Below, one piece after another: positions 1-63,158 of a stretch of 64,000 bases of DNA. Both the position numbers and the translations under genes were made by a program. How positions within the stretch are numbered: position 1 is the stretch's first letter; the number at the start of each line of letters is the position of its first letter. This stretch comes from a phage. The DNA is taken from sequence record PX994957.1. The stretch is one strand, 5' to 3'. The notes under the pieces were generated by a model that did no database searches, was not told where the DNA came from, and worked only from the letters and a program-made list of their open reading frames with translations.

Positions 1-56
1 AGTTTAGTTTTCAAAATTTCACGAATTGCTACTTTTTGTTCAGTCGTCAGTTTCAT
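1..56 (-). CDS. 5' end (about 18 codons, start codon at 56..54) of a second copy of the 102-aa ORF; runs off the left edge
   Basis: bases 1-158 are identical to 500-657, so the ATG at 56..54 and the upstream RBS copy those of ORF 247..555. Confidence 0.5.
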   Translation of the reverse strand, partial: MKLTTEQKVAIREILKTK

Positions 57-130
57 TTATTTACCTATCACAGTTTTAATATGAGTTGTTCCACGTTCTT
101 TAAGAGTGGAAAGCAATTTTTGGCATTTTT

Positions 131-190
131 CTAAATCAGATTTCCAACTATATGGTCTGCACGAATTGGTAGCTGTTGTACTTCAGACAT
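131..190 (-). pseudogene. 31: 5' fragment of gene 31 (GroES-like co-chaperonin): native codons MSEVQQLPIR(A), then out-of-frame junction sequence to a stop
   Basis: ATG at 190..188 with AAGGAA RBS; N-terminus matches recalled T4 gp31; duplication junction at 158/159 falls in codon 11. Confidence 0.6.
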
Positions 191-246
191 CGTTTTTCCT
201 TTTTGTTAACAGATGAATTAATAATAACAAATAATTCTTAAAGCAT

Positions 247-555
247 TTATTTACCAATAAATTGGAGTAAATGCTCAACTTTCATACCATTAACAGAAAT
301 CAATTTGTCAATAGAAAAACCTCGCCATGCACCAAGTTCAACATCAAATACTGGAATCATGTCAGTAGATTCTTTCCGAGTCGATTCAGTCAATTTACCA
401 GTTTGCATGGTTGGCATAAAGTCTGCGTCACGAGTACCTTTCATAGTACGAATAGTACCATCAGACTTTTCAAAAACTACGTTTGAAACACCCATGGACA
501 GTTTAGTTTTCAAAATTTCACGAATTGCTACTTTTTGTTCAGTCGTCAGTTTCAT
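247..555 (-). CDS. hypothetical early protein, 102 aa (T4 31.1 position)
   Basis: ORF track; lies wholly inside the duplicated unit. Confidence 0.6.
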   Translation of the reverse strand: MKLTTEQKVAIREILKTKLSMGVSNVVFEKSDGTIRTMKGTRDADFMPTMQTGKLTESTRKESTDMIPVFDVELGAWRGFSIDKLISVNGMKVEHLLQFIGK

Positions 556-792
556 TTATTTACCTATCACAGTTTTAATATGAGTTGTTCCACGTTCTTT
601 AAGAGTGGAAAGCAATTTTTGGCATTTTTCTAAATCAGATTTCCAACTATATGGTCTATCTATACTAGTCCAATCAGTTTTATAATACTGCTTCCATTTA
701 GAGAAAAAATATTTCTTATACTCTACAGCAAATGAGATGTTCTCATTAGAATAAGAACTAATTGCTGTGAGCTTTACCAAACGAAATTTCAT
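556..792 (-). CDS. hypothetical early protein, 78 aa (T4 31.2 position)
   Basis: ORF track; 3' end lies in the duplicated unit; start overlaps the cd stop. Confidence 0.55.
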   Translation of the reverse strand: MKFRLVKLTAISSYSNENISFAVEYKKYFFSKWKQYYKTDWTSIDRPYSWKSDLEKCQKLLSTLKERGTTHIKTVIGK

Positions 793-1373
793 TATTCACC
801 ACAGAATTCGTTGATATTTTCCCAGTTTAACTTATTCAAGTTTTTCTTAGGAACATTAAACACTTCAACACCTGCATTTCGCAGAATATCATCCCAGCCA
901 GGTTTATTTTTATCGTATGTTTCGCAATAAACCAGTTTTTTAATACCAGATTGAGCTATCGCTTTTGCACAATCTGGACAAGGAGAAAGTGTTACATACA
1001 TAGTAGCACCTTCAATAGAAGAACCATTTCGTGCAGCAAACAAAATTGCATTTAGTTCAGCATGAATTTCATTTTTAGACGACCATTCAGAGTGAGCGCT
1101 CCGGTGTTCTTTTGCCAAGACAAAACGATCAGTTGAACCAAATGATACGCATTCAGGCTTATGGCCTTGAATGATAGTATGTTTAGGCTTATTCAGCAAC
1201 CAACCTTGCTCAGCAGCATAATCACAACAGTTCACACCACCAGCAGGTGAACCATTATATCCGGTAGAAATAATACGTCCATTCTTTTCAATTACTGCTC
1301 CTACCTTCCAGGAGCAACATTTTGATTCCTGCGATACTAAATATGCAATTTGAAGTACTGTACTCGCTTTCAT
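792..1373 (-). CDS. cd: dCMP deaminase
   Basis: 193 aa; HAE and PCxxC zinc-binding deaminase motifs; matches recalled T4 Cd. Confidence 0.93.
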   Translation of the reverse strand: MKASTVLQIAYLVSQESKCCSWKVGAVIEKNGRIISTGYNGSPAGGVNCCDYAAEQGWLLNKPKHTIIQGHKPECVSFGSTDRFVLAKEHRSAHSEWSSKNEIHAELNAILFAARNGSSIEGATMYVTLSPCPDCAKAIAQSGIKKLVYCETYDKNKPGWDDILRNAGVEVFNVPKKNLNKLNWENINEFCGE

Positions 1374-1708
1374 TTCATAATCACCAGATAAGCAGATTTA
1401 GCAGTTTCAACACGATAAATTTCGTGACGAAGTTTAGTTATACTTTTAATAACAGAACTAATTATATTCTGCCCATCTTTAAAGCGGTTTTTCTTATCAA
1501 TAAAAATTGCGCCAACCATCTTTTTGTGAAGCTCAACTGGATACTTCGTCACAATAATAGCATCATATACGGAAGGATGAATACTATTTACTAGAGTGTC
1601 ATTCATTAAAGTTATTCTAATGAACTGTGCTGTTTCAGAGTCAAGCGCTCTATGATCGCCAGTATCATTTTCAAGACAATTATCAATTATATCAGTTAAA
1701 TTCATCAT
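1370..1708 (-). CDS. hypothetical early protein, 112 aa
   Basis: ORF track; overlapping stop/start with neighbours. Confidence 0.55.
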   Translation of the reverse strand: MMNLTDIIDNCLENDTGDHRALDSETAQFIRITLMNDTLVNSIHPSVYDAIIVTKYPVELHKKMVGAIFIDKKNRFKDGQNIISSVIKSITKLRHEIYRVETAKSAYLVIMK

Positions 1709-1944
1709 AGTACGCCATACACCCTTTGTGCTTCAACTAATCCATCAAAATCTAATTTAAGATGCGATATTTGATCGCCATCACCTGGATTCACAATTAC
1801 TAATACTGAACGAGGAGTTTCAGTAATAACACGAACCGATGTTTCAGGAAATCGTTCAGAAACCTTATTTACCAATTCCTGTGCAAATAGCTTAACTTTT
1901 TCTTGGAATTCTTTAACAGTAATCGGTTTTTCACTTAGCAGCAT
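1705..1944 (-). CDS. hypothetical early protein, 79 aa
   Basis: ORF track; early promoter immediately upstream. Confidence 0.55.
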   Translation of the reverse strand: MLLSEKPITVKEFQEKVKLFAQELVNKVSERFPETSVRVITETPRSVLVIVNPGDGDQISHLKLDFDGLVEAQRVYGVL

Positions 1945-1973
1945 TTTGTTTTCCTCATTTGTTTGGTAGAGCT

Positions 1974-2003
1974 ATAATATCACAACTCTACCGTAAAGTA
2001 AAC
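1974..2003 (-). promoter_or_regulatory. sigma70-type early promoter (GTTTAC -35, TATTAT -10) flanked by GTAGAG/CTCTAC palindrome
   Basis: minus strand reads GTTTAC-N18-TATTAT upstream of ORF start 1944. Confidence 0.55.
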
Positions 2004-2005
2004 TA

Positions 2006-2281
2006 TTAAATTGCTTTGAATTCTGCTGTCTGCGATTCAAAACGAATATCGCCTTTGATAACTAACTCAGCATCAAGACCGAATACGACAATGATATGCG
2101 CGGAACCTGGATACAACGTGATGGCAACAGAATCCACCTGGTCTGGAAGCAAAGTGTTCAATACATGAGTCACTTGAGCATGAATTCGAAGCTCGGCTGC
2201 GTTATCAAGCTTTTCAAACATATTATTAGCGATAATTTGACTAAACACTACTTCTACAATTTTAGAATAAGTCGGAAACAT
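2006..2281 (-). CDS. hypothetical early protein, 91 aa (start at internal ATG with GAGG RBS)
   Basis: ORF track frame; ATG 2281..2279 preceded by GAGGTAAAT. Confidence 0.5.
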   Translation of the reverse strand: MFPTYSKIVEVVFSQIIANNMFEKLDNAAELRIHAQVTHVLNTLLPDQVDSVAITLYPGSAHIIVVFGLDAELVIKGDIRFESQTAEFKAI

Positions 2282-2283
2282 AT

Positions 2284-2484
2284 TTACCTCACATAATTTT
2301 CTTCGAGCCAATCAATAACATCCAACGCATTATCAAAAGTTGAACCATCTACTTTGTCTTCTGTTTCATAATCAAGAACATCTAAACCTACTCTTCCATT
2401 AACAATAGGCCATAAACAAAACAGGTATTTCTTTTCTTTTTCAATTTTATCACAAAGATGATAAATTTTTTCTATATTATTCAT
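2284..2484 (-). CDS. hypothetical early protein, 66 aa
   Basis: ORF track. Confidence 0.5.
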   Translation of the reverse strand: MNNIEKIYHLCDKIEKEKKYLFCLWPIVNGRVGLDVLDYETEDKVDGSTFDNALDVIDWLEENYVR

Positions 2485-2673
2485 AAGTTTTCCACGGTAA
2501 AGGCAGTTTAGTTTTCTTTACTGTTAGTTCAACATCAGGATTCTTTTCTCTTAATTTAAGGCATTCCTCCCAAGCTCTGATTTCACTAGTGAATACACAA
2601 AATTGCCCATTACTAGTACCGACTAAACCACTATTTACAATAATAATAGCCCAAATTTCATGATGCAAAGCCA

Positions 2674-2674
<1 letters not shown>
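2477..2674 (-). CDS. hypothetical early protein, 65 aa (start overlaps pseT stop)
   Basis: ORF track frame; internal ATG at 2674 abuts pseT stop. Confidence 0.45.
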
Positions 2675-3573
<899 letters not shown>

Positions 3574-3576
3574 TCA

Positions 3577-3879
3577 TCATTTAATTCCTAAGAAAACTTC
3601 AAGAATACGAATATTATGCTCACGCCGTCCTTTGTACAATTCAGCTGTTGATTGATTCGCTGATTTACTCTGAACATTGGATGAAATAAATTTTATCATG
3701 TGATTTTTAAGCTGATACATATCAAGCCCACGAGCTTTCGCTTCTTTTCGCAGGGCTTTACCAGCATCATCTAAAGCTTTAGCATGTTCAATGTCTTCGC
3801 TAATGCTTGATACATTTTCACGGCATACGTCAATGTAACGGTCTGAGCATTCAATATAACGTTCTAACAGAGTTTTCAT
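3577..3879 (-). CDS. hypothetical early protein, 100 aa
   Basis: ORF track; stop overlaps pseT-region ATG (ATGA). Confidence 0.55.
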   Translation of the reverse strand: MKTLLERYIECSDRYIDVCRENVSSISEDIEHAKALDDAGKALRKEAKARGLDMYQLKNHMIKFISSNVQSKSANQSTAELYKGRREHNIRILEVFLGIK

Positions 3880-4106
3880 TTATTTTTCTCAACCAATGAT
3901 TGAATATAATCATGCAGGTCTTTAGATGCTTTACCCCACTTATTTTGATATTCATTTTTGAGATTAGCGCGTGATTGAGCTAATAAAACATCATTAGTTG
4001 GAGGTAAAGATTCTAATCGTTGAATCTGTCGTCCATAAATCATTGCAGCCATCTCGGATTCATAAATTAATCCTTTTAGATGTTCAAATTGATACCATGA
4101 AATCAT
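3876..4106 (-). CDS. hypothetical early protein, 76 aa
   Basis: ORF track. Confidence 0.5.
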   Translation of the reverse strand: MISWYQFEHLKGLIYESEMAAMIYGRQIQRLESLPPTNDVLLAQSRANLKNEYQNKWGKASKDLHDYIQSLVEKNK

Positions 4107-4402
4107 TTACATTTATCCTCTTTTAGCTCTTGACGATAATAACATATCATAGTTTTCTGGTCATGTACATATCGTTTTACATCATTAAGCCAAATACGAA
4201 ATTCCTGAGAATCTTCAAATGGCATACCTACCCAAGCTTTACCATCAATAACTTTAACTTGCCAAGATAGTTTAGCTTCGTCATATGACTTTATTTGCAC
4301 AGGCCAATTAGGATGAACTGTTTCTTTCTTTACTTCTAGAGGCTTTGTCGAACAACCAACTAGAAGACCAATAGATAATATTACTGCAGATAATTTAATC
4401 AT
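4103..4402 (-). CDS. outer-membrane spanin (o-spanin lipoprotein; T4 pseT.2 equivalent)
   Basis: 99 aa; signal peptide with LVGC lipobox; directly downstream of the i-spanin-like ORF. Confidence 0.65.
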   Translation of the reverse strand: MIKLSAVILSIGLLVGCSTKPLEVKKETVHPNWPVQIKSYDEAKLSWQVKVIDGKAWVGMPFEDSQEFRIWLNDVKRYVHDQKTMICYYRQELKEDKCK

Positions 4403-4752
4403 TTAGAAAGGTCCTGGATGTCTTCTGCGAACTTGTTGAAGGAGTTGTTGATTTGTTTTTCAACCAATCCTGGCTTACGAGCCACCACATCCGCCTTCTT
4501 TGCATCTTTGCGCAGTTTTTCATTTTCACGCTCAATAGCAGCAATCGCCTCACGATTTTTATTATTCATCGCATCAATATAATTATACTGAATTCGCAAA
4601 TTATTTAATGCTAAGGCGTTTTCATTGGCCGTTTTTGTAATTTCTACAACAGACGTTTCTAATCTTTCTACCTTATTTTTTAAAATAATAGATGTTCCGC
4701 CAAATGCTATTACAAGTAATAGCAATCCAGCTGTAAAATTACTTACATGCAT
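4399..4752 (-). CDS. inner-membrane spanin (i-spanin; T4 pseT.3 equivalent)
   Basis: 117 aa; N-terminal TM helix then coiled-coil-like charged region; paired with lipoprotein ORF. Confidence 0.6.
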   Translation of the reverse strand: MHVSNFTAGLLLLVIAFGGTSIILKNKVERLETSVVEITKTANENALALNNLRIQYNYIDAMNNKNREAIAAIERENEKLRKDAKKADVVARKPGLVEKQINNSFNKFAEDIQDLSK

Positions 4753-5246
4753 AAAGTTTTAATAACCTCTATAATATCGTCTTGAGAAAGACCGTTAATT
4801 AAAATATGATGTTCAGCCGGAGATTTAGAAATTTTAAAGCACGCCGCAACATCTTCTGCCATATCCGATGCGCTACGATTTGGATTACTAATTCCAAGAC
4901 GATGCTTTCCTGTCAAAGGATTAACGATGATATAGCATTTGCAGCTATTGATATGAACATTAGGTTGAGTCTGATTAATAAACACTTCACAATCATACTT
5001 AGCGAGTTGATTTTCTAAAAAGACTTTCATCTCCTCAACCGCATCAGGAAGCATATCACGGGCTTGCTCAAGACGACGATTTCGATATTCTTTAATGGTC
5101 GTTTTCCGCTTGACTTGCTTAGCTAAATCTTTCTTAAGATCGGTGATATATCCAACTCGACGATTTCCTTTGAATACAGAAATCCCATCTGTAGTATCAC
5201 CGTATGCTTCAACGACCATTTCAGTAGTAATAAGCTGCAAATCCAT
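4743..5246 (-). CDS. alc: Alc, inhibitor of host transcription on cytosine-containing DNA
   Basis: 167 aa; matches recalled T4 Alc; position between pseT block and rnlA. Confidence 0.85.
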   Translation of the reverse strand: MDLQLITTEMVVEAYGDTTDGISVFKGNRRVGYITDLKKDLAKQVKRKTTIKEYRNRRLEQARDMLPDAVEEMKVFLENQLAKYDCEVFINQTQPNVHINSCKCYIIVNPLTGKHRLGISNPNRSASDMAEDVAACFKISKSPAEHHILINGLSQDDIIEVIKTLCM

Positions 5247-5277
5247 CATAAAGTCCTCATGTTATGTCAGTAAGACT

Positions 5278-5307
5278 ACTATAACACAACACGAGGGACT
5301 TGTAAAC
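5278..5307 (-). promoter_or_regulatory. sigma70-type early promoter upstream of alc
   Basis: minus strand GTTTAC-N17-TTATAGT. Confidence 0.5.
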
Positions 5308-14464: not shown

Positions 14465-14506
14465 ATTATTTTCCTCTTTAACTATCAGCAGTATTGCCGA
14501 TAGTTG

Positions 14507-14537
14507 TATAGTACCATGGAAGGACAAGGATGTAAAC
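14507..14537 (-). promoter_or_regulatory. sigma70-type early promoter with conserved leader box
   Basis: minus strand GTTTAC-N18-TACTAT; shares leader box with other promoters in the window. Confidence 0.55.
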
Positions 14538-14562
14538 CGTTTTGTGAAAAAATTTTTGAAAT

Positions 14563-14588
14563 AAAAAAAGGGGACCCTAGAGGTCCCC
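14563..14588 (-). terminator. rho-independent terminator downstream of gene 32
   Basis: GGGGACC-CUAGA-GGUCCCC hairpin followed by U7 on minus strand. Confidence 0.8.
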
Positions 14589-15519: not shown

Positions 15520-15602
15520 TTTTATTTCCTTTTTAATTTAATTAACAGTTGGTGCTATGACGATGTATGACCTCATAGCTGGTCAGTGAGATAATTATAA
15601 TT
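15520..15602 (-). promoter_or_regulatory. gene 32 translational operator (5' pseudoknot plus unstructured A/U-rich leader)
   Basis: minus strand reads ACCAGCUAUGAGGUCAUACAUCGUCAUAGCAC then A/U-rich tract to the ATG; matches recalled T4 gene 32 autoregulatory leader. Confidence 0.6.
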
Positions 15603-15610
15603 TATTTATA
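15603..15610 (-). promoter_or_regulatory. late promoter TATAAATA upstream of gene 32
   Basis: exact TATAAATA on minus strand. Confidence 0.55.
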
Positions 15611-15618
15611 ATAAGCAA

Positions 15619-16272
15619 TTAATACTTACAAGATTTCACAGTTTCAATAAAAACTTTTTTAGCTTCCTGTGAATCGATATTTAAAATTTTTCTATAAGCT
15701 TTTAACTTTATAGAATAATTGTTCCAAACTAAATTATCAGTTTGTTCATCATGTTTATCAATTATATTTAAAAACGAATCAAGCAAGATAAACGTCTCAA
15801 ACGAAATTATGTTCGATTGCAGAAGTTTAAAAATATAACTTGATTGAACTTTTGGATTATATTCAAAAATTTCTTTAAAAGCAGAAACTTCAACTTTTTT
15901 ACTAAAATAATAAATGTTGCGAATATCTTCTTCAAACTTAAATTTAATTTGCTTTAAGCGTCCGATATATTCACGATAAAACACAAGTGCATCAGCGTCA
16001 GAGATGTCACCAATCCAAGCATCTTGGTTAGCAACCAAATTACTTATAAAGATTAAAGCAAGTTCCTTTAATTTATATTTTTCTGATAACTTCTGGAAAA
16101 AATACTTATCCCTTCGCTTTTGATAAGCGGCATCAGACACCCGCATGCACCAATTATACTTAATAACATCATACTTTCCATTCATATGCTGTTTTATCAT
16201 TAAGTATAATTTATAAACTGATTTACCATCAATGTATCTTTCACCACCAGCAGGCATGCGGAGTTTAATCAT
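15619..16272 (-). CDS. 59: helicase loader gp59
   Basis: 217 aa; matches recalled T4 gp59. Confidence 0.93.
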   Translation of the reverse strand: MIKLRMPAGGERYIDGKSVYKLYLMIKQHMNGKYDVIKYNWCMRVSDAAYQKRRDKYFFQKLSEKYKLKELALIFISNLVANQDAWIGDISDADALVFYREYIGRLKQIKFKFEEDIRNIYYFSKKVEVSAFKEIFEYNPKVQSSYIFKLLQSNIISFETFILLDSFLNIIDKHDEQTDNLVWNNYSIKLKAYRKILNIDSQEAKKVFIETVKSCKY

Positions 16273-30538: not shown

Positions 30539-31174
30539 TCACAGTTCAGATGCTACAGTGATTACAGCTTCAATGTTTTCTGCCGAGCGTTTAATGTCAA
30601 GATACACATTACCGTTTTTAGCGATTTTACATGACATTCCGATATCAGTAAATTTCTGAATATGATGTTCCATCATTTTGTATCCAAAAATTCGCATATT
30701 TCCATTGTTGTTAATTTCAAAATTACGAATTCCGTGAGTACGTTTTTCTAAAATAGCGAGATAGTTACTACGATAAGTTTCAACCTTTTTAAGAACAAAT
30801 CCATTTTCATCTAAAAGTTTTAACATGAGGTCTTTATCTTCTTCCATATCAGAAGTAATTTCGCGAGCTTTACGAGTTGCTCGTTTTTTCAGTAGTTCCG
30901 GAGCATTTTCCTGTGCGTATAAAGTTGCTGCATTTGAAATAATATCCTGAGCTTCACCAGTAATGATTAATCCATCACCTGATTTCTCCACCAGGCCTTT
31001 TTTAATCAACACCCCAATATTACTATTAACTACTGCGTTACCTAAATCTGGATGCACCTCACGAACTTCTGCAGCTGTAATGAAATCTTTCTTAGCAATA
31101 GTAATTAAAATCGCAGCAGTTTTTTCATTCAGAACATCGTTAGAAGCTTTGATGATGTAAGTTACTTTAGACAT
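30539..31174 (-). CDS. motA: middle-transcription activator MotA (intact)
   Basis: 211 aa; matches recalled T4 MotA. Confidence 0.93.
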   Translation of the reverse strand: MSKVTYIIKASNDVLNEKTAAILITIAKKDFITAAEVREVHPDLGNAVVNSNIGVLIKKGLVEKSGDGLIITGEAQDIISNAATLYAQENAPELLKKRATRKAREITSDMEEDKDLMLKLLDENGFVLKKVETYRSNYLAILEKRTHGIRNFEINNNGNMRIFGYKMMEHHIQKFTDIGMSCKIAKNGNVYLDIKRSAENIEAVITVASEL

Positions 31175-31215
31175 TTTCTAATCTCCGTAATTCTGTATCA
31201 GTAGTTGATAGTTGT

Positions 31216-31245
31216 ATAGTACCACAGTATGCTTTGGTTGTAAAC
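31216..31245 (-). promoter_or_regulatory. sigma70-type early promoter for motA with conserved leader box
   Basis: minus strand GTTTAC-N18-TACTAT; leader box gtagttgatagttgtatagtacca. Confidence 0.6.
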
Positions 31246-31271
31246 CGTTTTGTGAAAAAAAAAATTAAAAT

Positions 31272-31297
31272 AAAAAAGGGAGAGCCTCGGCTCTCCC
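31272..31297 (-). terminator. rho-independent terminator (copy A)
   Basis: GGGAGAGCC-GAG-GCUCUCCC followed by U6 on minus strand. Confidence 0.7.
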
Positions 31298-31302
31298 TAA
31301 AA

Positions 31303-31452
31303 TTACTGCATGACTGTGATAACTGTCATGATAACACGTTGAATTCCGAACGCAAGAAGACCTCCTGCTACGGCTGGAACAACACCTAAACCCGCCAGTA
31401 AAATGCTACCGGATACTAATGCAGCGCTTGTAATACCTATGAATGGACTCAT
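31303..31452 (-). CDS. small hydrophobic membrane protein, 49 aa (copy A)
   Basis: own translation MSPFIGITSAALVSG...; ATG overlaps upstream stop (ATGA). Confidence 0.5.
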   Translation of the reverse strand: MSPFIGITSAALVSGSILLAGLGVVPAVAGGLLAFGIQRVIMTVITVMQ

Positions 31453-32174
31453 TTGATTTCCTCTAAATCTTTAGTGTATTCGGTAACTACATTAGTAGTT
31501 TTCCAATATTCGTTTTCTTCTTTCTTAGCTTTAGCTTCTTCAGCAAGTTTCTTTGCTTCGTCGGAAGTCATATGAAAAATATTCATTCCAACTAGTTTAT
31601 CAACATAAGAAGAATACATATCGATTTTCGAAAGTTCTTCGGTCAGTTCTTTGCGAGTTTTACCCTGCACAACGATTTCACCTGAAATTACTTTCTTAAT
31701 GAAATGTGCCTTGGCAAAGGCTAAACGAAAAGCTGACTCAGTTTCTTTGATTTTGTTATCAATTCGTTTTTGGACATAAGTTTTACGAACTTCAACAAAG
31801 TCTTTAATTAAATCAAGTTTTAACATGAGGTCTTTATCTTCTTCCATATCAGAAGTAATTTCGCGAGCTTTACGAGTTGCTCGTTTTTTCAGTAGTTCCG
31901 GAGCATTTTCCTGTGCGTATAAAGTTGCTGCATTTGAAATAATATCCTGAGCTTCACCAGTAATGATTAATCCATCACCTGATTTCTCCACCAGGCCTTT
32001 TTTAATCAACACCCCAATATTACTATTAACTACTGCGTTACCTAAATCTGGATGCACCTCACGAACTTCTGCAGCTGTAATGAAATCTTTCTTAGCAATA
32101 GTAATTAAAATCGCAGCAGTTTTTTCATTCAGAACATCGTTAGAAGCTTTGATGATGTAAGTTACTTTAGACAT
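31449..32174 (-). CDS. chimeric ORF: MotA residues 1-120 fused in frame to gp52 residues 322-442
   Basis: 241-aa ORF; N-terminal half identical to motA, C-terminal half identical to the gene 52 3' end; lies on the duplication junction 31816/31817. Confidence 0.8.
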   Translation of the reverse strand: MSKVTYIIKASNDVLNEKTAAILITIAKKDFITAAEVREVHPDLGNAVVNSNIGVLIKKGLVEKSGDGLIITGEAQDIISNAATLYAQENAPELLKKRATRKAREITSDMEEDKDLMLKLDLIKDFVEVRKTYVQKRIDNKIKETESAFRLAFAKAHFIKKVISGEIVVQGKTRKELTEELSKIDMYSSYVDKLVGMNIFHMTSDEAKKLAEEAKAKKEENEYWKTTNVVTEYTKDLEEIK

Positions 32175-32215
32175 TTTCTAATCTCCGTAATTCTGTATCA
32201 GTAGTTGATAGTTGT

Positions 32216-32245
32216 ATAGTACCACAGTATGCTTTGGTTGTAAAC
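32216..32245 (-). promoter_or_regulatory. duplicate copy of the motA early promoter, now upstream of the chimeric ORF
   Basis: identical to 31216-31245. Confidence 0.6.
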
Positions 32246-32271
32246 CGTTTTGTGAAAAAAAAAATTAAAAT

Positions 32272-32297
32272 AAAAAAGGGAGAGCCTCGGCTCTCCC
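32272..32297 (-). terminator. rho-independent terminator (copy B)
   Basis: identical to 31272-31297. Confidence 0.7.
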
Positions 32298-32302
32298 TAA
32301 AA

Positions 32303-32452
32303 TTACTGCATGACTGTGATAACTGTCATGATAACACGTTGAATTCCGAACGCAAGAAGACCTCCTGCTACGGCTGGAACAACACCTAAACCCGCCAGTA
32401 AAATGCTACCGGATACTAATGCAGCGCTTGTAATACCTATGAATGGACTCAT
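32303..32452 (-). CDS. small hydrophobic membrane protein, 49 aa (copy B)
   Basis: identical to 31303-31452. Confidence 0.5.
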   Translation of the reverse strand: MSPFIGITSAALVSGSILLAGLGVVPAVAGGLLAFGIQRVIMTVITVMQ

Positions 32453-33777
32453 TTGATTTCCTCTAAATCTTTAGTGTATTCGGTAACTACATTAGTAGTT
32501 TTCCAATATTCGTTTTCTTCTTTCTTAGCTTTAGCTTCTTCAGCAAGTTTCTTTGCTTCGTCGGAAGTCATATGAAAAATATTCATTCCAACTAGTTTAT
32601 CAACATAAGAAGAATACATATCGATTTTCGAAAGTTCTTCGGTCAGTTCTTTGCGAGTTTTACCCTGCACAACGATTTCACCTGAAATTACTTTCTTAAT
32701 GAAATGTGCCTTGGCAAAGGCTAAACGAAAAGCTGACTCAGTTTCTTTGATTTTGTTATCAATTCGTTTTTGGACATAAGTTTTACGAACTTCAACAAAG
32801 TCTTTAATTAAATCAACTACGTTATCGTAAACTTGTAGTTTTCCTTTCTCATTAATAACCGTAATATTCTGAGAACGACGCTCAATCAACCCGAAGTCTT
32901 TCATAATTTTTGCATGGCGTTCTTCTTCGTTATCGCTCAAAGAATATTCTTTACGGAATTTAACTTTGAATCCAAAACCATGCTCACCACAAGCATCATC
33001 CCATGTAATGAAGCCTTTATCTTCAAGTGGGTCTAAGATTTTACTCACATAAGTTTCACGATCATACTTATACGGAATCTCAGTGATATGCATTTGAGTT
33101 CGTGAAGTAAACTTATATGTTCCACGAATTTCATATTGGCCATCAATCTCAACGACTTCACCACGAAATTCTGGGAATTCTACCTTCGGTTTAGTTACTT
33201 TCTTTCCTTGAAGAGCTTGTAATACAGCTTTCTTAACAGAAGAAACACTATGAGGAAGAATGTAAGTTGCATAACCAGTTGCAATACCGGAAACACCATT
33301 AAGAAGAACAGTAGGAATAATAGGCAAATAGAAAGCAGGCGGAATGTGTTCTTTATCTTGATGTACCGGAGCATATTCAGTATCTTTATATACGTTATAG
33401 AAATTTTTACTTACACGAGCAAAAATATAACGACTTGCTGCTGCTTTTTGGACGGTACGAGAACCAAAGTTTCCTTGACCATCTAACAGAGGAAAATTAT
33501 TATTCCAAGTGTTAGCCATCAAAGCACCTGCGTCTTGCGCAGAGTTTTCACCATGATGATATCCAAGGTCCGCTACACCACCTGCAATAGAAGCGAGTTT
33601 GTGAAACTTATCTTTATTTCCTCGTGCCAAATCAAGAGCTCGAGCAATAACAAATCGTTGAACTGGCTTAAATCCGTCAATCATATTTGGAATGGCACGA
33701 TTTTCAACCGTGTACATAGCATAAGCCAATGCTTCATTATCAATGATACTTTTTAAATCGCGATTATTCAGTTGCAT
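32449..33777 (-). CDS. 52: DNA topoisomerase II medium subunit gp52 (GyrA-like, intact)
   Basis: 442 aa; catalytic-Tyr region AASRYI; T4 synteny. Confidence 0.93.
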   Translation of the reverse strand: MQLNNRDLKSIIDNEALAYAMYTVENRAIPNMIDGFKPVQRFVIARALDLARGNKDKFHKLASIAGGVADLGYHHGENSAQDAGALMANTWNNNFPLLDGQGNFGSRTVQKAAASRYIFARVSKNFYNVYKDTEYAPVHQDKEHIPPAFYLPIIPTVLLNGVSGIATGYATYILPHSVSSVKKAVLQALQGKKVTKPKVEFPEFRGEVVEIDGQYEIRGTYKFTSRTQMHITEIPYKYDRETYVSKILDPLEDKGFITWDDACGEHGFGFKVKFRKEYSLSDNEEERHAKIMKDFGLIERRSQNITVINEKGKLQVYDNVVDLIKDFVEVRKTYVQKRIDNKIKETESAFRLAFAKAHFIKKVISGEIVVQGKTRKELTEELSKIDMYSSYVDKLVGMNIFHMTSDEAKKLAEEAKAKKEENEYWKTTNVVTEYTKDLEEIK

Positions 33778-35004: not shown

Positions 35005-35223
35005 TCATTTTACACCATTCCAAATTGTTTCAACTACTGATTTTAAACCATTTTGATAAATATCCATTCCGACTACTGCCATCAAATAGATTCCAACTAC
35101 AACTGAACCTAAGGCGAAAATCAGCATAAAAATAAATAAAGTCGGAAAAATATTATCGAAAAACCATTCAATAAATGTAAAAGCACCGCGTTTACGCTTC
35201 ATATTTTCCTCACATAAATCCAA
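35005..35223 (-). CDS. small membrane protein, 72 aa
   Basis: ORF track; hydrophobic. Confidence 0.5.
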   Translation of the reverse strand: MDLCEENMKRKRGAFTFIEWFFDNIFPTLFIFMLIFALGSVVVGIYLMAVVGMDIYQNGLKSVVETIWNGVK

Positions 35224-35323
35224 AATAAGCGTTTAACATATCAATCATTAAAACGATTGGGAATATACTCAAAACTATTAGTATTATAACTACATTCCAT
35301 ATAGCTTTAACAATCTTTTTCAT
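35210..35323 (-). CDS. small membrane protein, 37 aa (MKKIVKAIWNVVIILIVL...)
   Basis: internal ATG with GGAGGAA RBS directly downstream of early promoter. Confidence 0.45.
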   Translation of the reverse strand: MKKIVKAIWNVVIILIVLSIFPIVLMIDMLNAYFGFM

Positions 35324-35350
35324 TTTGTGTTCCTCCGTAGTTGATAGTTG

Positions 35351-35381
35351 TATAGTACCACAGAGGAACAGTCTTGTAAAC
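35351..35381 (-). promoter_or_regulatory. sigma70-type early promoter with conserved leader box
   Basis: minus strand GTTTAC-N18-TACTAT. Confidence 0.55.
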
Positions 35382-35598
35382 AACTTTTTTAAAAATATTC
35401 GTAATAAATGTGAATACCAACTACTACCGCTGAAACCTGTGCAACCCACCACGCGCAAGCAATAAGTACAGAATTAAAAATTTTCATAATAACCTCATCA
35501 CAAAAGTAAATGTTAAACAAATTAATGGAATACTAATTAACCAAACAAAACACCACCATAATGAACTCATAGTTCAATCTCAACGATTTTCATTTTAC

Positions 35599-35817
35599 TC
35601 AATAATCCGCTAAAAGATCGACGATTGCATCACGAAGACACTTATTCGCAATACGTTTAAGAGCAATTTCAGTTTCTGGAGCATTTTGAATAATCATTGA
35701 ATTCAATTCAGCCTCAGCAAACTGAAGTTCTTTAACTAATTCAGCTTTATATTTTCCTTGCCCTTTCTTAGCTTTTGCTCGTTTTAATTCAGCTGTAGTA
35801 AACATTTTATTCTCCAA
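35599..35817 (-). CDS. hypothetical basic protein, about 69-72 aa
   Basis: ORF track. Confidence 0.5.
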   Translation of the reverse strand: MENKMFTTAELKRAKAKKGQGKYKAELVKELQFAEAELNSMIIQNAPETEIALKRIANKCLRDAIVDLLADY

Positions 35818-44004: not shown

Positions 44005-44088
44005 GTTATTTTCTGTATCAGTAGTTGATATTGATATAGTACCATAATCAACTACTGATGTATATAGTTTTATGAAAAAATTTAAACT

Positions 44089-44586
44089 TTATGCACAGCG
44101 AGCTTTGCTATAGTGTTTAATCCAGCTTTCAGGAATGACTTTGTATGTTCCTAAAAATACCGCGTTGTACAGCTTAACACCGTCTTCTACCCACTGATCG
44201 GTAATGTATGCGCACATAGCACGAGTACGGTGTTTTTGAACAACCCCTTCCTCATCTTCAGTAAATTCGAATTCATAAGGAGCAACGAACTTAATAGCCT
44301 GACCGAGTTTCCACTTAAAGTATACACCTACATGCGAAGTATCAATCGTTTCAATTCCTTTAGCAGGAACAGCTTTCAAAAACGCAGATTCAAGAAATTT
44401 CGCACGAACATAGCCAAACTGAGGTTTAGACTTTCCATCTTTAGGAATGATACGCACTTTTACTTCAGAATCTTCATCTTTAACGCCGTGTTTAAGCTGA
44501 ATGCTTACAATTTCGACCAATTTTCCTGCTGCTTTAGAACGGGATTTATCAGATACACGAGCAATTTCACCAATATTAATAATCAT
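44089..44586 (-). CDS. hypothetical protein, 165 aa; shares a C-terminal module with ORF 44663..45202
   Basis: ORF track; shared motif ITDQWVEDGVKLYNAVF. Confidence 0.6.
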   Translation of the reverse strand: MIINIGEIARVSDKSRSKAAGKLVEIVSIQLKHGVKDEDSEVKVRIIPKDGKSKPQFGYVRAKFLESAFLKAVPAKGIETIDTSHVGVYFKWKLGQAIKFVAPYEFEFTEDEEGVVQKHRTRAMCAYITDQWVEDGVKLYNAVFLGTYKVIPESWIKHYSKARCA

Positions 44587-63004: not shown

Positions 63005-63040
63005 TTTATTCTCCAAATCCGTATCAGTAGTTGATAGTTG

Positions 63041-63071
63041 TATAGTACCATGGAAGAACATTCTTGTAAAC
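63041..63071 (-). promoter_or_regulatory. sigma70-type early promoter with conserved leader box
   Basis: minus strand GTTTAC-N18-TACTAT. Confidence 0.55.
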
Positions 63072-63158
63072 AGTTTTGTGAAAATTTTTTAGGGAATTTT
63101 AAATGTCCAGAATCATCTGTTTTTCATAAGTATAGATTTATATTACTTGTATGAAAAA

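Follow-up and report, generated by a model that had tools for sequence, protein, structure and literature searches.

Tandem duplications and amplifications are frequent and well documented in bacteriophage T4 (PMC9391042). For example, the 'accordion' at dmd-tifA is a microhomology-mediated tandem segmental amplification (Srikant, Guegler and Laub 2022, PMC9391042), and duplications at rII (Kumagai 1993) as well as Hp17 amplifications of genes 16-18 (Wu 1991) are cited in the same paper. The sequenced junctions of T4 duplications and amplifications coincide with short homologies, typically of 6-10 bp, and the passages of that paper on the older cases give junction homologies of 2-10 bp; the terminal redundancy of T4 is ~3.3 kb (PMC9391042). 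The locus described here lies at the left edge of the window, i.e. the whole stretch of 64 kb of phage DNA that was analysed. It is like the dmd-tifA, rII and Hp17 amplifications in several ways: a segment of a T4-type genome, between a few hundred and a few thousand bp long, is copied perfectly and head to tail, each repeat brings one novel junction, every gene is kept in an intact copy, and headful packaging limits the extra DNA. It differs from them in three respects: their junctions lie at homologies of typically 6-10 bp, compared with 0 bp here (and 2 bp at a sibling repeat in the same window); they were selected, and were confirmed by coverage and divergent-primer PCR, whereas the present case is known from sequence alone and no selection is evident; and they are usually accompanied by compensating deletions, the view here being 64 kb of a ~167-kb genome.

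Another point of comparison is provided by the false tandem duplications that can arise when circular or circularly permuted genomes are assembled, from untrimmed overlaps at joins or upon circularisation, or from loops through minority or chimeric junctions. The locus resembles such false duplications in its 100% identical copies, in its arbitrary, homology-free junction, in its absence from independent near-identical assemblies, and in the presence of more than one duplication in the assembly, one of them with a round period (1000 bp). It is unlike them in that an untrimmed circularisation overlap yields one duplication per genome, not two, in that the assembly is otherwise clean, and in that no particular program can be tied to the cause.

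Layout and gene content of the 499-bp repeat

The window represents a T4-like phage (Tequatrovirus), and 540 phage records match its first 3 kb. The best of these, OK331996.1 (vB_EcoM-G157lw), is 100% identical over positions 1-3000 and 98-99% identical overall. With a fingerprint taken from the variable stretch at 10.5-15.5 kb, identity reached 96% at most; a fingerprint 43-mer matched a single IMG/VR contig, which is 94% identical, and a search of E. coli genomes gave no match. Self-comparison of the window bore out the repeat that had been predicted for its left edge: positions 1-158 equal positions 500-657 at every base (158/158), at a start-to-start spacing of 499, and an exact match of 158 nt cannot be chance. 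In the whole 64-kb window, only two offsets yielded long exact direct repeats, 499 and 1000. The copies of the 499-bp repeat are direct and head-to-tail with a single novel junction, 158 nt of the left copy being in view, and the sequence is otherwise collinear with wild type. The simplest reading is a perfect head-to-tail duplication L-U-U-R in the cd-31.2-31.1-31 region, with U = 159-657, of whose left copy the first 341 nt would precede the window; this layout is strengthened by the complete two-copy tandem duplication of 1000 bp that is present in the same window. From L-U-U-R we infer that the DNA to the left of the window would hold a complete second 31.1 and an intact gene 31, as the original prediction had proposed, and both would be expected there whether the duplication is an artefact or genuine. 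The features are listed in Table 1.

Table 1. Coordinates of the repeats, junctions and genes discussed in the text (window positions).
Feature	Position	Strand	Basis
Left copy of the 499-bp unit, partial: last 158 nt, truncated by the window edge	1..158	.	100% identity, offset 499
Second 31.1 copy, first 18 codons MKLTTEQKVAIREILKTK, then left edge of the window	1..56	-	Translation from the start at 56
Orphan 3' fragment of 31.2 in the left copy: last 33 codons and stop	57..158	-	Identity to 556-657
Gene 31 remnant ORF, 19 codons and stop	131..190	-	Translation of 190..131
Novel junction 158/159 (unit end to unit start), 0 bp microhomology	157..160	.	Flank comparison
Right copy of the 499-bp unit, complete: gene 31 codon 11 to mid gene 31.2	159..657	.	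Collinearity with OK331996.1, L007 and L009 from 159 rightwards
MotA-box middle-promoter-like site (TGCTTTA, 12 nt, TATTAT) upstream of the gene 31 start	221..245	-	Consensus match only
Gene 31.1, 102 aa, WYL_2 / SH3-like beta-barrel, complete copy	247..555	-	Pfam PF10902, E = 1.1e-20
Gene 31.2, 78 aa, intact; crosses the right boundary of the unit (657/658)	556..792	-	PF26895 Phage_T4_Y13C on the identical-length neighbour in relatives
cd (dCMP deaminase)	792-1373	-	PF00383, 4e-26
pseT	~2674-3576	-	
Complete two-copy perfect tandem duplication, period exactly 1000 bp	30815..32816	.	30815-31814 = 31815-32814, plus 2-nt 'AA' overlap
In-frame 241-aa ORF made by the 1000-bp junction: MotA residues 1-120 and C-terminal 121 residues of gp52	31449-32174	-	

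All genes at the left edge lie on the minus strand, and their order, pseT, cd.x ORFs, cd, 31.2, 31.1 and 31, is the one familiar from T4-type phages. The original prediction had placed the whole 102-aa ORF in the duplicated unit, which is correct, since gene 31.1 (247-555) is contained in 159-657. It had also described the junction as joining the start of gene 31 to the out-of-frame 3' end of the 78-aa ORF, and this is what was found: at the junction (...ATATGGTCT/GCACGAATTGG..., with the slash between positions 158 and 159) gene 31 is interrupted behind the second base of its codon 11, so that 32 nt (10 codons and 2 nt) derive from gene 31, the Ala codon is completed by a 31.2 base, and the remainder of the ORF is an out-of-frame 3' part of 31.2. 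Its stop codon at 131-133, the counterpart of 630-632, is not in the reading frame of the 78-aa ORF at 556-792. Translation of the minus strand gave MSEVQQLPIRADHIVGNLI followed by a stop codon, in agreement with the 19-codon gene 31 remnant starting MSEVQQLPIRA that had been predicted at 131..190; these first 11 residues are identical to those of the intact gp31 of OK331996.1 (111 aa), which starts MSEVQQLPIRAVGEYV.

The gp31 protein of T4 is a GroES-like co-chaperonin that is needed, together with GroEL, for folding of the major capsid protein gp23. The intact gp31 of OK331996.1 matches PF00166 (Cpn10 family), whose domain requires ~95-110 residues, compared with the 19 codons and 11 gp31 residues of the ORF at 131-190. 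Like T4 gene 31, the remnant has the RBS, the start codon and the first 11 residues of this gene, with a MotA-box-like promoter upstream; unlike T4 gene 31, it holds 11 of the 111 residues and is without the Cpn10 fold, and it therefore cannot act as a co-chaperonin. The MotA-box-like pattern was found 11 times in the window by pattern search (2.35 matches expected), and the site at 221-245 lies inside the unit and would thus be duplicated along with it. Because the unit carries both the RBS of gene 31 and this MotA-box-like site (245-221), the 19-aa stub would probably be expressed in a real phage, as a meaningless by-product.

The wild-type boundaries of the 499-bp unit read ...CACCGACA/GCACGAATT... 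on the left (GCACG following the slash) and ...TATGGTCT/ATCTATAC... on the right (ATGGTCT/ATCTA around the slash). The bases common to both boundaries at the breakpoint amount to 0 bp, and to 2 bp ('AA') for the 1000-bp unit; the 499-bp repeat thus lies outside the range of T4-type junction homologies (2-10 bp, typically 6-10 bp). A similarity of 16/20 between 160-179 and 519-538 was considered as a recombination substrate and rejected, since it implies a period of 359 bp, not 499 bp, and is located away from the junction. No relevant account of a duplication at gene 31 or motA in a T4-like phage emerged from literature searches, and the regions of raised coverage in PMC4893331 were rejected as a parallel, since they concern cyanophages.

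The locus in related genomes

The gene order in OK331996.1 is the ordinary one (rIII, intact gene 31, 31.1, 31.2, cd); window position 159 falls within codon 11 of gene 31 in this genome, onto whose 31.1/31.2 positions 1-158 map a second time. Even closer matches were two assemblies, L007 (from SRR21357778) and L009 (from SRR21357578), with 0 mismatches over window positions 159-5283 and 159-1990, respectively; both cross the two boundaries of the unit uninterrupted, with a single 31.1 and an intact gp31 of 111 aa. Inspection of more than 40 related loci showed the ordinary single-copy order of cd, 31.2, 31.1 and an intact gene 31. Searches for exact matches to the cd, 31.1, gp52 and gp38 proteins yielded single-copy relatives only; the identical cd protein was single-copy in 7/7 places, the identical 31.1 protein in 10/10 places listed, and the identical gp52 protein in 10/10 places. 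Similarly, relatives of 31.1 in IMG/VR were single-copy at all 14 loci (14/14).

A 40-mer centred on the 158/159 junction had no match among 50,697 phage records; each of its halves is shorter than the search word, so that a match was possible only in a record with the junction itself. A 30-mer of this junction was absent from IMG/VR, from GTDB genome contigs (185,579 species) and from JGI metagenome contigs, and neither the more than 500 Tequatrovirus records nor the 14 IMG/VR loci contained the 499-bp duplication. Retained paralogues are expected to have diverged and to be common to related genomes; here, the copies are 100% identical and no relative has the duplication. Two features expected of a false duplication are present: every base is identical in both repeats, and the junction is absent from independent near-identical assemblies.

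Two IMG/VR contigs from one metagenome, L041 (IMGVR_UViG_3300010279_000008) and L045 (IMGVR_UViG_3300010279_000005), of 49.5 kb and 116.6 kb, make up approximately one T4-like genome; both end inside gene 31.1, with an overlap of ~120 nt (window equivalents 329-451). Among further differences from OK331996.1, the window at 15582-15621 is without ~590 bp that are found at 35158-35785 of that genome, between gene 59 and gene 32 (hypothetical ORF); this gap is one of several mosaic indels between the two phages.

A second tandem duplication and the frameshift in pseT

The original prediction was accurate in its description of the left edge; it missed a tandem duplication of 1000 bp and a frameshift in pseT, both of which bear on the interpretation. 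In the duplication, 30815-31816 equals 31815-32816 exactly (1002/1002 bases). Its unit comprises the 3' third of gene 52 (for the medium subunit of topoisomerase II), gene 52.1 and the first 120 codons of motA, and the fusion ORF created at its junction (31449-32174) includes the complete MotA activation domain (PF09114, 1e-60). No record of the exact MotA-gp52 fusion protein was found in public assemblies, and a 40-mer on the junction of the 1000-bp duplication had no match in phage records. Furthermore, no comparable perfect near-tandem repeat was found in 401 kb of related sequence and 14 further loci. With one 1000-bp copy removed, the window is collinear with its relatives again (99.5% over 3 kb).

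An intergenic repeat family of ~74 nt was also observed, with members at 14499-14572, 31207-31280, 32207-32280, 35343-35416, 44027-44100 and 63033-63106. The repeats are 62-78% identical to the copy at 14499-14572 and have the core GATAGTTGTATAGTACC...TGTAAAC; their minus-strand sequence resembles that of T4 early promoters (GTTTACA, spacer, TACTATAC). In relatives, several k-mer assemblies (L025, L030, L031, L033-L035) break exactly at the repeat near window positions 31200-31250.

The pseT gene is frameshifted at codon 4 by one extra A in the homopolymer at 3569-3574 (minus strand), the run being ATGATGAAAAAAG in the window and ATGATGAAAAAG in L005 and L007 (A6 versus A5, codons 3-4); a TTG-started ORF at 2674-3561 could encode pseT residues 7-301. 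This extra A and the duplication are the only differences from L007 over 5.1 kb. When frames were compared with those of OK331996.1, pseT was the only broken real gene found in the 64-kb window, and the other 1-nt indels were all located in intergenic homopolymers. A noisy long-read assembly was rejected as the source, on account of this single coding indel in 64 kb and the confinement of the others to intergenic homopolymers.

Origin and significance of the duplications

We favour, with moderate confidence, the explanation that the 499-bp duplication was created in the assembly or construction of the sequence, not in the phage. The copies are 100% identical in both repeats, the junction is unique even in comparison with the 0-mismatch assemblies L007 and L009, and the junction microhomologies of 0 and 2 bp fall short of the 6-10 bp typical of T4 (PMC9391042), all of which argues for an artefact. 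Two perfect duplications in 64 kb, compared with none in 401 kb and 14 loci, suggest one systematic cause, and the round period of the sibling, exactly 1000 bp, points to software or construction. Perfect tandem repeats of 0.5-1 kb are quickly lost through the very active homologous recombination of T4 unless they are selected, so that the joint fixation of two such repeats is a priori unlikely. Possible routes would be an assembler or polisher that crossed a spurious or minority junction, an untrimmed joining of overlapping pieces, or another in-silico step, and the gene 31 stub, the orphan 31.2 tail and the second 31.1 would then be passive by-products of the junction without function. With pieces that break at 31.1, as L041 and L045 do, an untrimmed joining would produce a false duplication at this very locus. 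A join of the record's end to its start with an untrimmed overlap, an idea that drew on the junction being 158 nt from the window edge, was rejected as sole cause, since it cannot account for the 1000-bp duplication in mid-window. A generally sloppy assembly is disfavoured, because the rest of the window is clean, with only pseT broken in comparison with a 98-99% identical genome. Several points count against an artefact: short-read assemblers mostly collapse tandem duplications rather than invent them, 499 is not a round period, the terminal redundancy of T4 leaves room for the extra DNA, and junctions without homology do occur in illegitimate recombination.

A genuine and very recent tandem duplication in the phage stock, by illegitimate recombination (homology-independent or topoisomerase-type) or by template switching during replication, is possible, if rather doubtful. 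Gene 31 would then be intact to the left, 31.1 and the promoter and RBS of gene 31 would be doubled, a 19-aa junk peptide would be made, and the duplication may be neutral and transient, or selected for the dosage of 31.1. Such events are indeed frequent and well documented in T4 (PMC9391042), and the layout keeps one intact copy of every gene, including the essential gene 31. The extra 0.5 + 1.0 kb (~1.5 kb in all) is accommodated by a headful terminal redundancy of ~3.3 kb, so that a real double duplication is physically possible; the remaining assembly is of high quality, and over 5.1 kb the window otherwise departs from L007 only by a homopolymer +1 in the dispensable pseT, which is typical of a spontaneous mutation. 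However, a genuine duplication has to be reconciled with 0 bp of microhomology in place of the usual 6-10 bp, with a junction that has no counterpart in more than 500 Tequatrovirus genomes or in near-identical strains, with the fixation, in the same stock, of another independent perfect duplication whose period is exactly 1000 bp, and with the instability of perfect repeats in T4. That both duplications are real and were also selected, in a T4-like phage of the wild or the laboratory, appears improbable; they would form a double 'accordion' that raises the dosage of the small genes 31.1 (for a WYL_2/SH3-like protein) and 52.1 and also fuses the MotA activation domain in frame to the C-terminus of gp52, by a homology-independent route that differs from the microhomology route described for T4, perhaps as a step of counter-defence or host adaptation. 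Improbable, too, is a start of the window at the end of a contig or record, with 1-158 as a chimeric end fragment and without a complete second unit, second 31.1 or intact gene 31 beyond it: the junction is just 158 nt inside the window, chimeric sequence is common at contig ends, and the T4-like genome of another metagenome is split into two contigs that end inside 31.1 (L041, L045), but the sibling, which has both copies complete and lies well within the window, shows that this source contains full duplications, and position 1 bears no sequence mark of a physical end. That 31.1 has been retained in evolution as a paralogous duplicate, or that the repeat provides gene 31 with a functional leader peptide or an upstream regulatory element, is hardly conceivable, since the RBS and start codon of the 19-codon ORF speak for it and nothing else, while the copies are 100% identical, no relative examined has the duplication, and the tail of the remnant is out-of-frame 31.2 sequence; a duplication that is old or has a function is in practice excluded.

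As for the original prediction, its gene names, junction, peptide and unit content stand; the significance that it implied does not, in view of the unique junction, the ordinary order in near-identical strains, the lack of microhomology, and the 1000-bp sibling, which together suggest a non-biological origin or, at most, a trivial event of recent date. Under the favoured explanation of an origin in assembly or construction, the repeat would be a false duplication of a familiar type and would matter as quality control only: the genome length would be overstated by at least 1.5 kb, and the second 31.1, the 19-aa gene 31 stub and the MotA-gp52 fusion would be spurious genes. Neither an artefact nor a genuine duplication would surprise a specialist or open a new question. 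If real, the duplication would work like the classical T4 tandem duplications (rII, Hp17, dmd-tifA), but would not share their microhomology; it would be one more case of the well-known tendency of T4-type phages to tandem duplication, with modest added interest only if the dosage of 31.1 or 52.1 proved to be selected.
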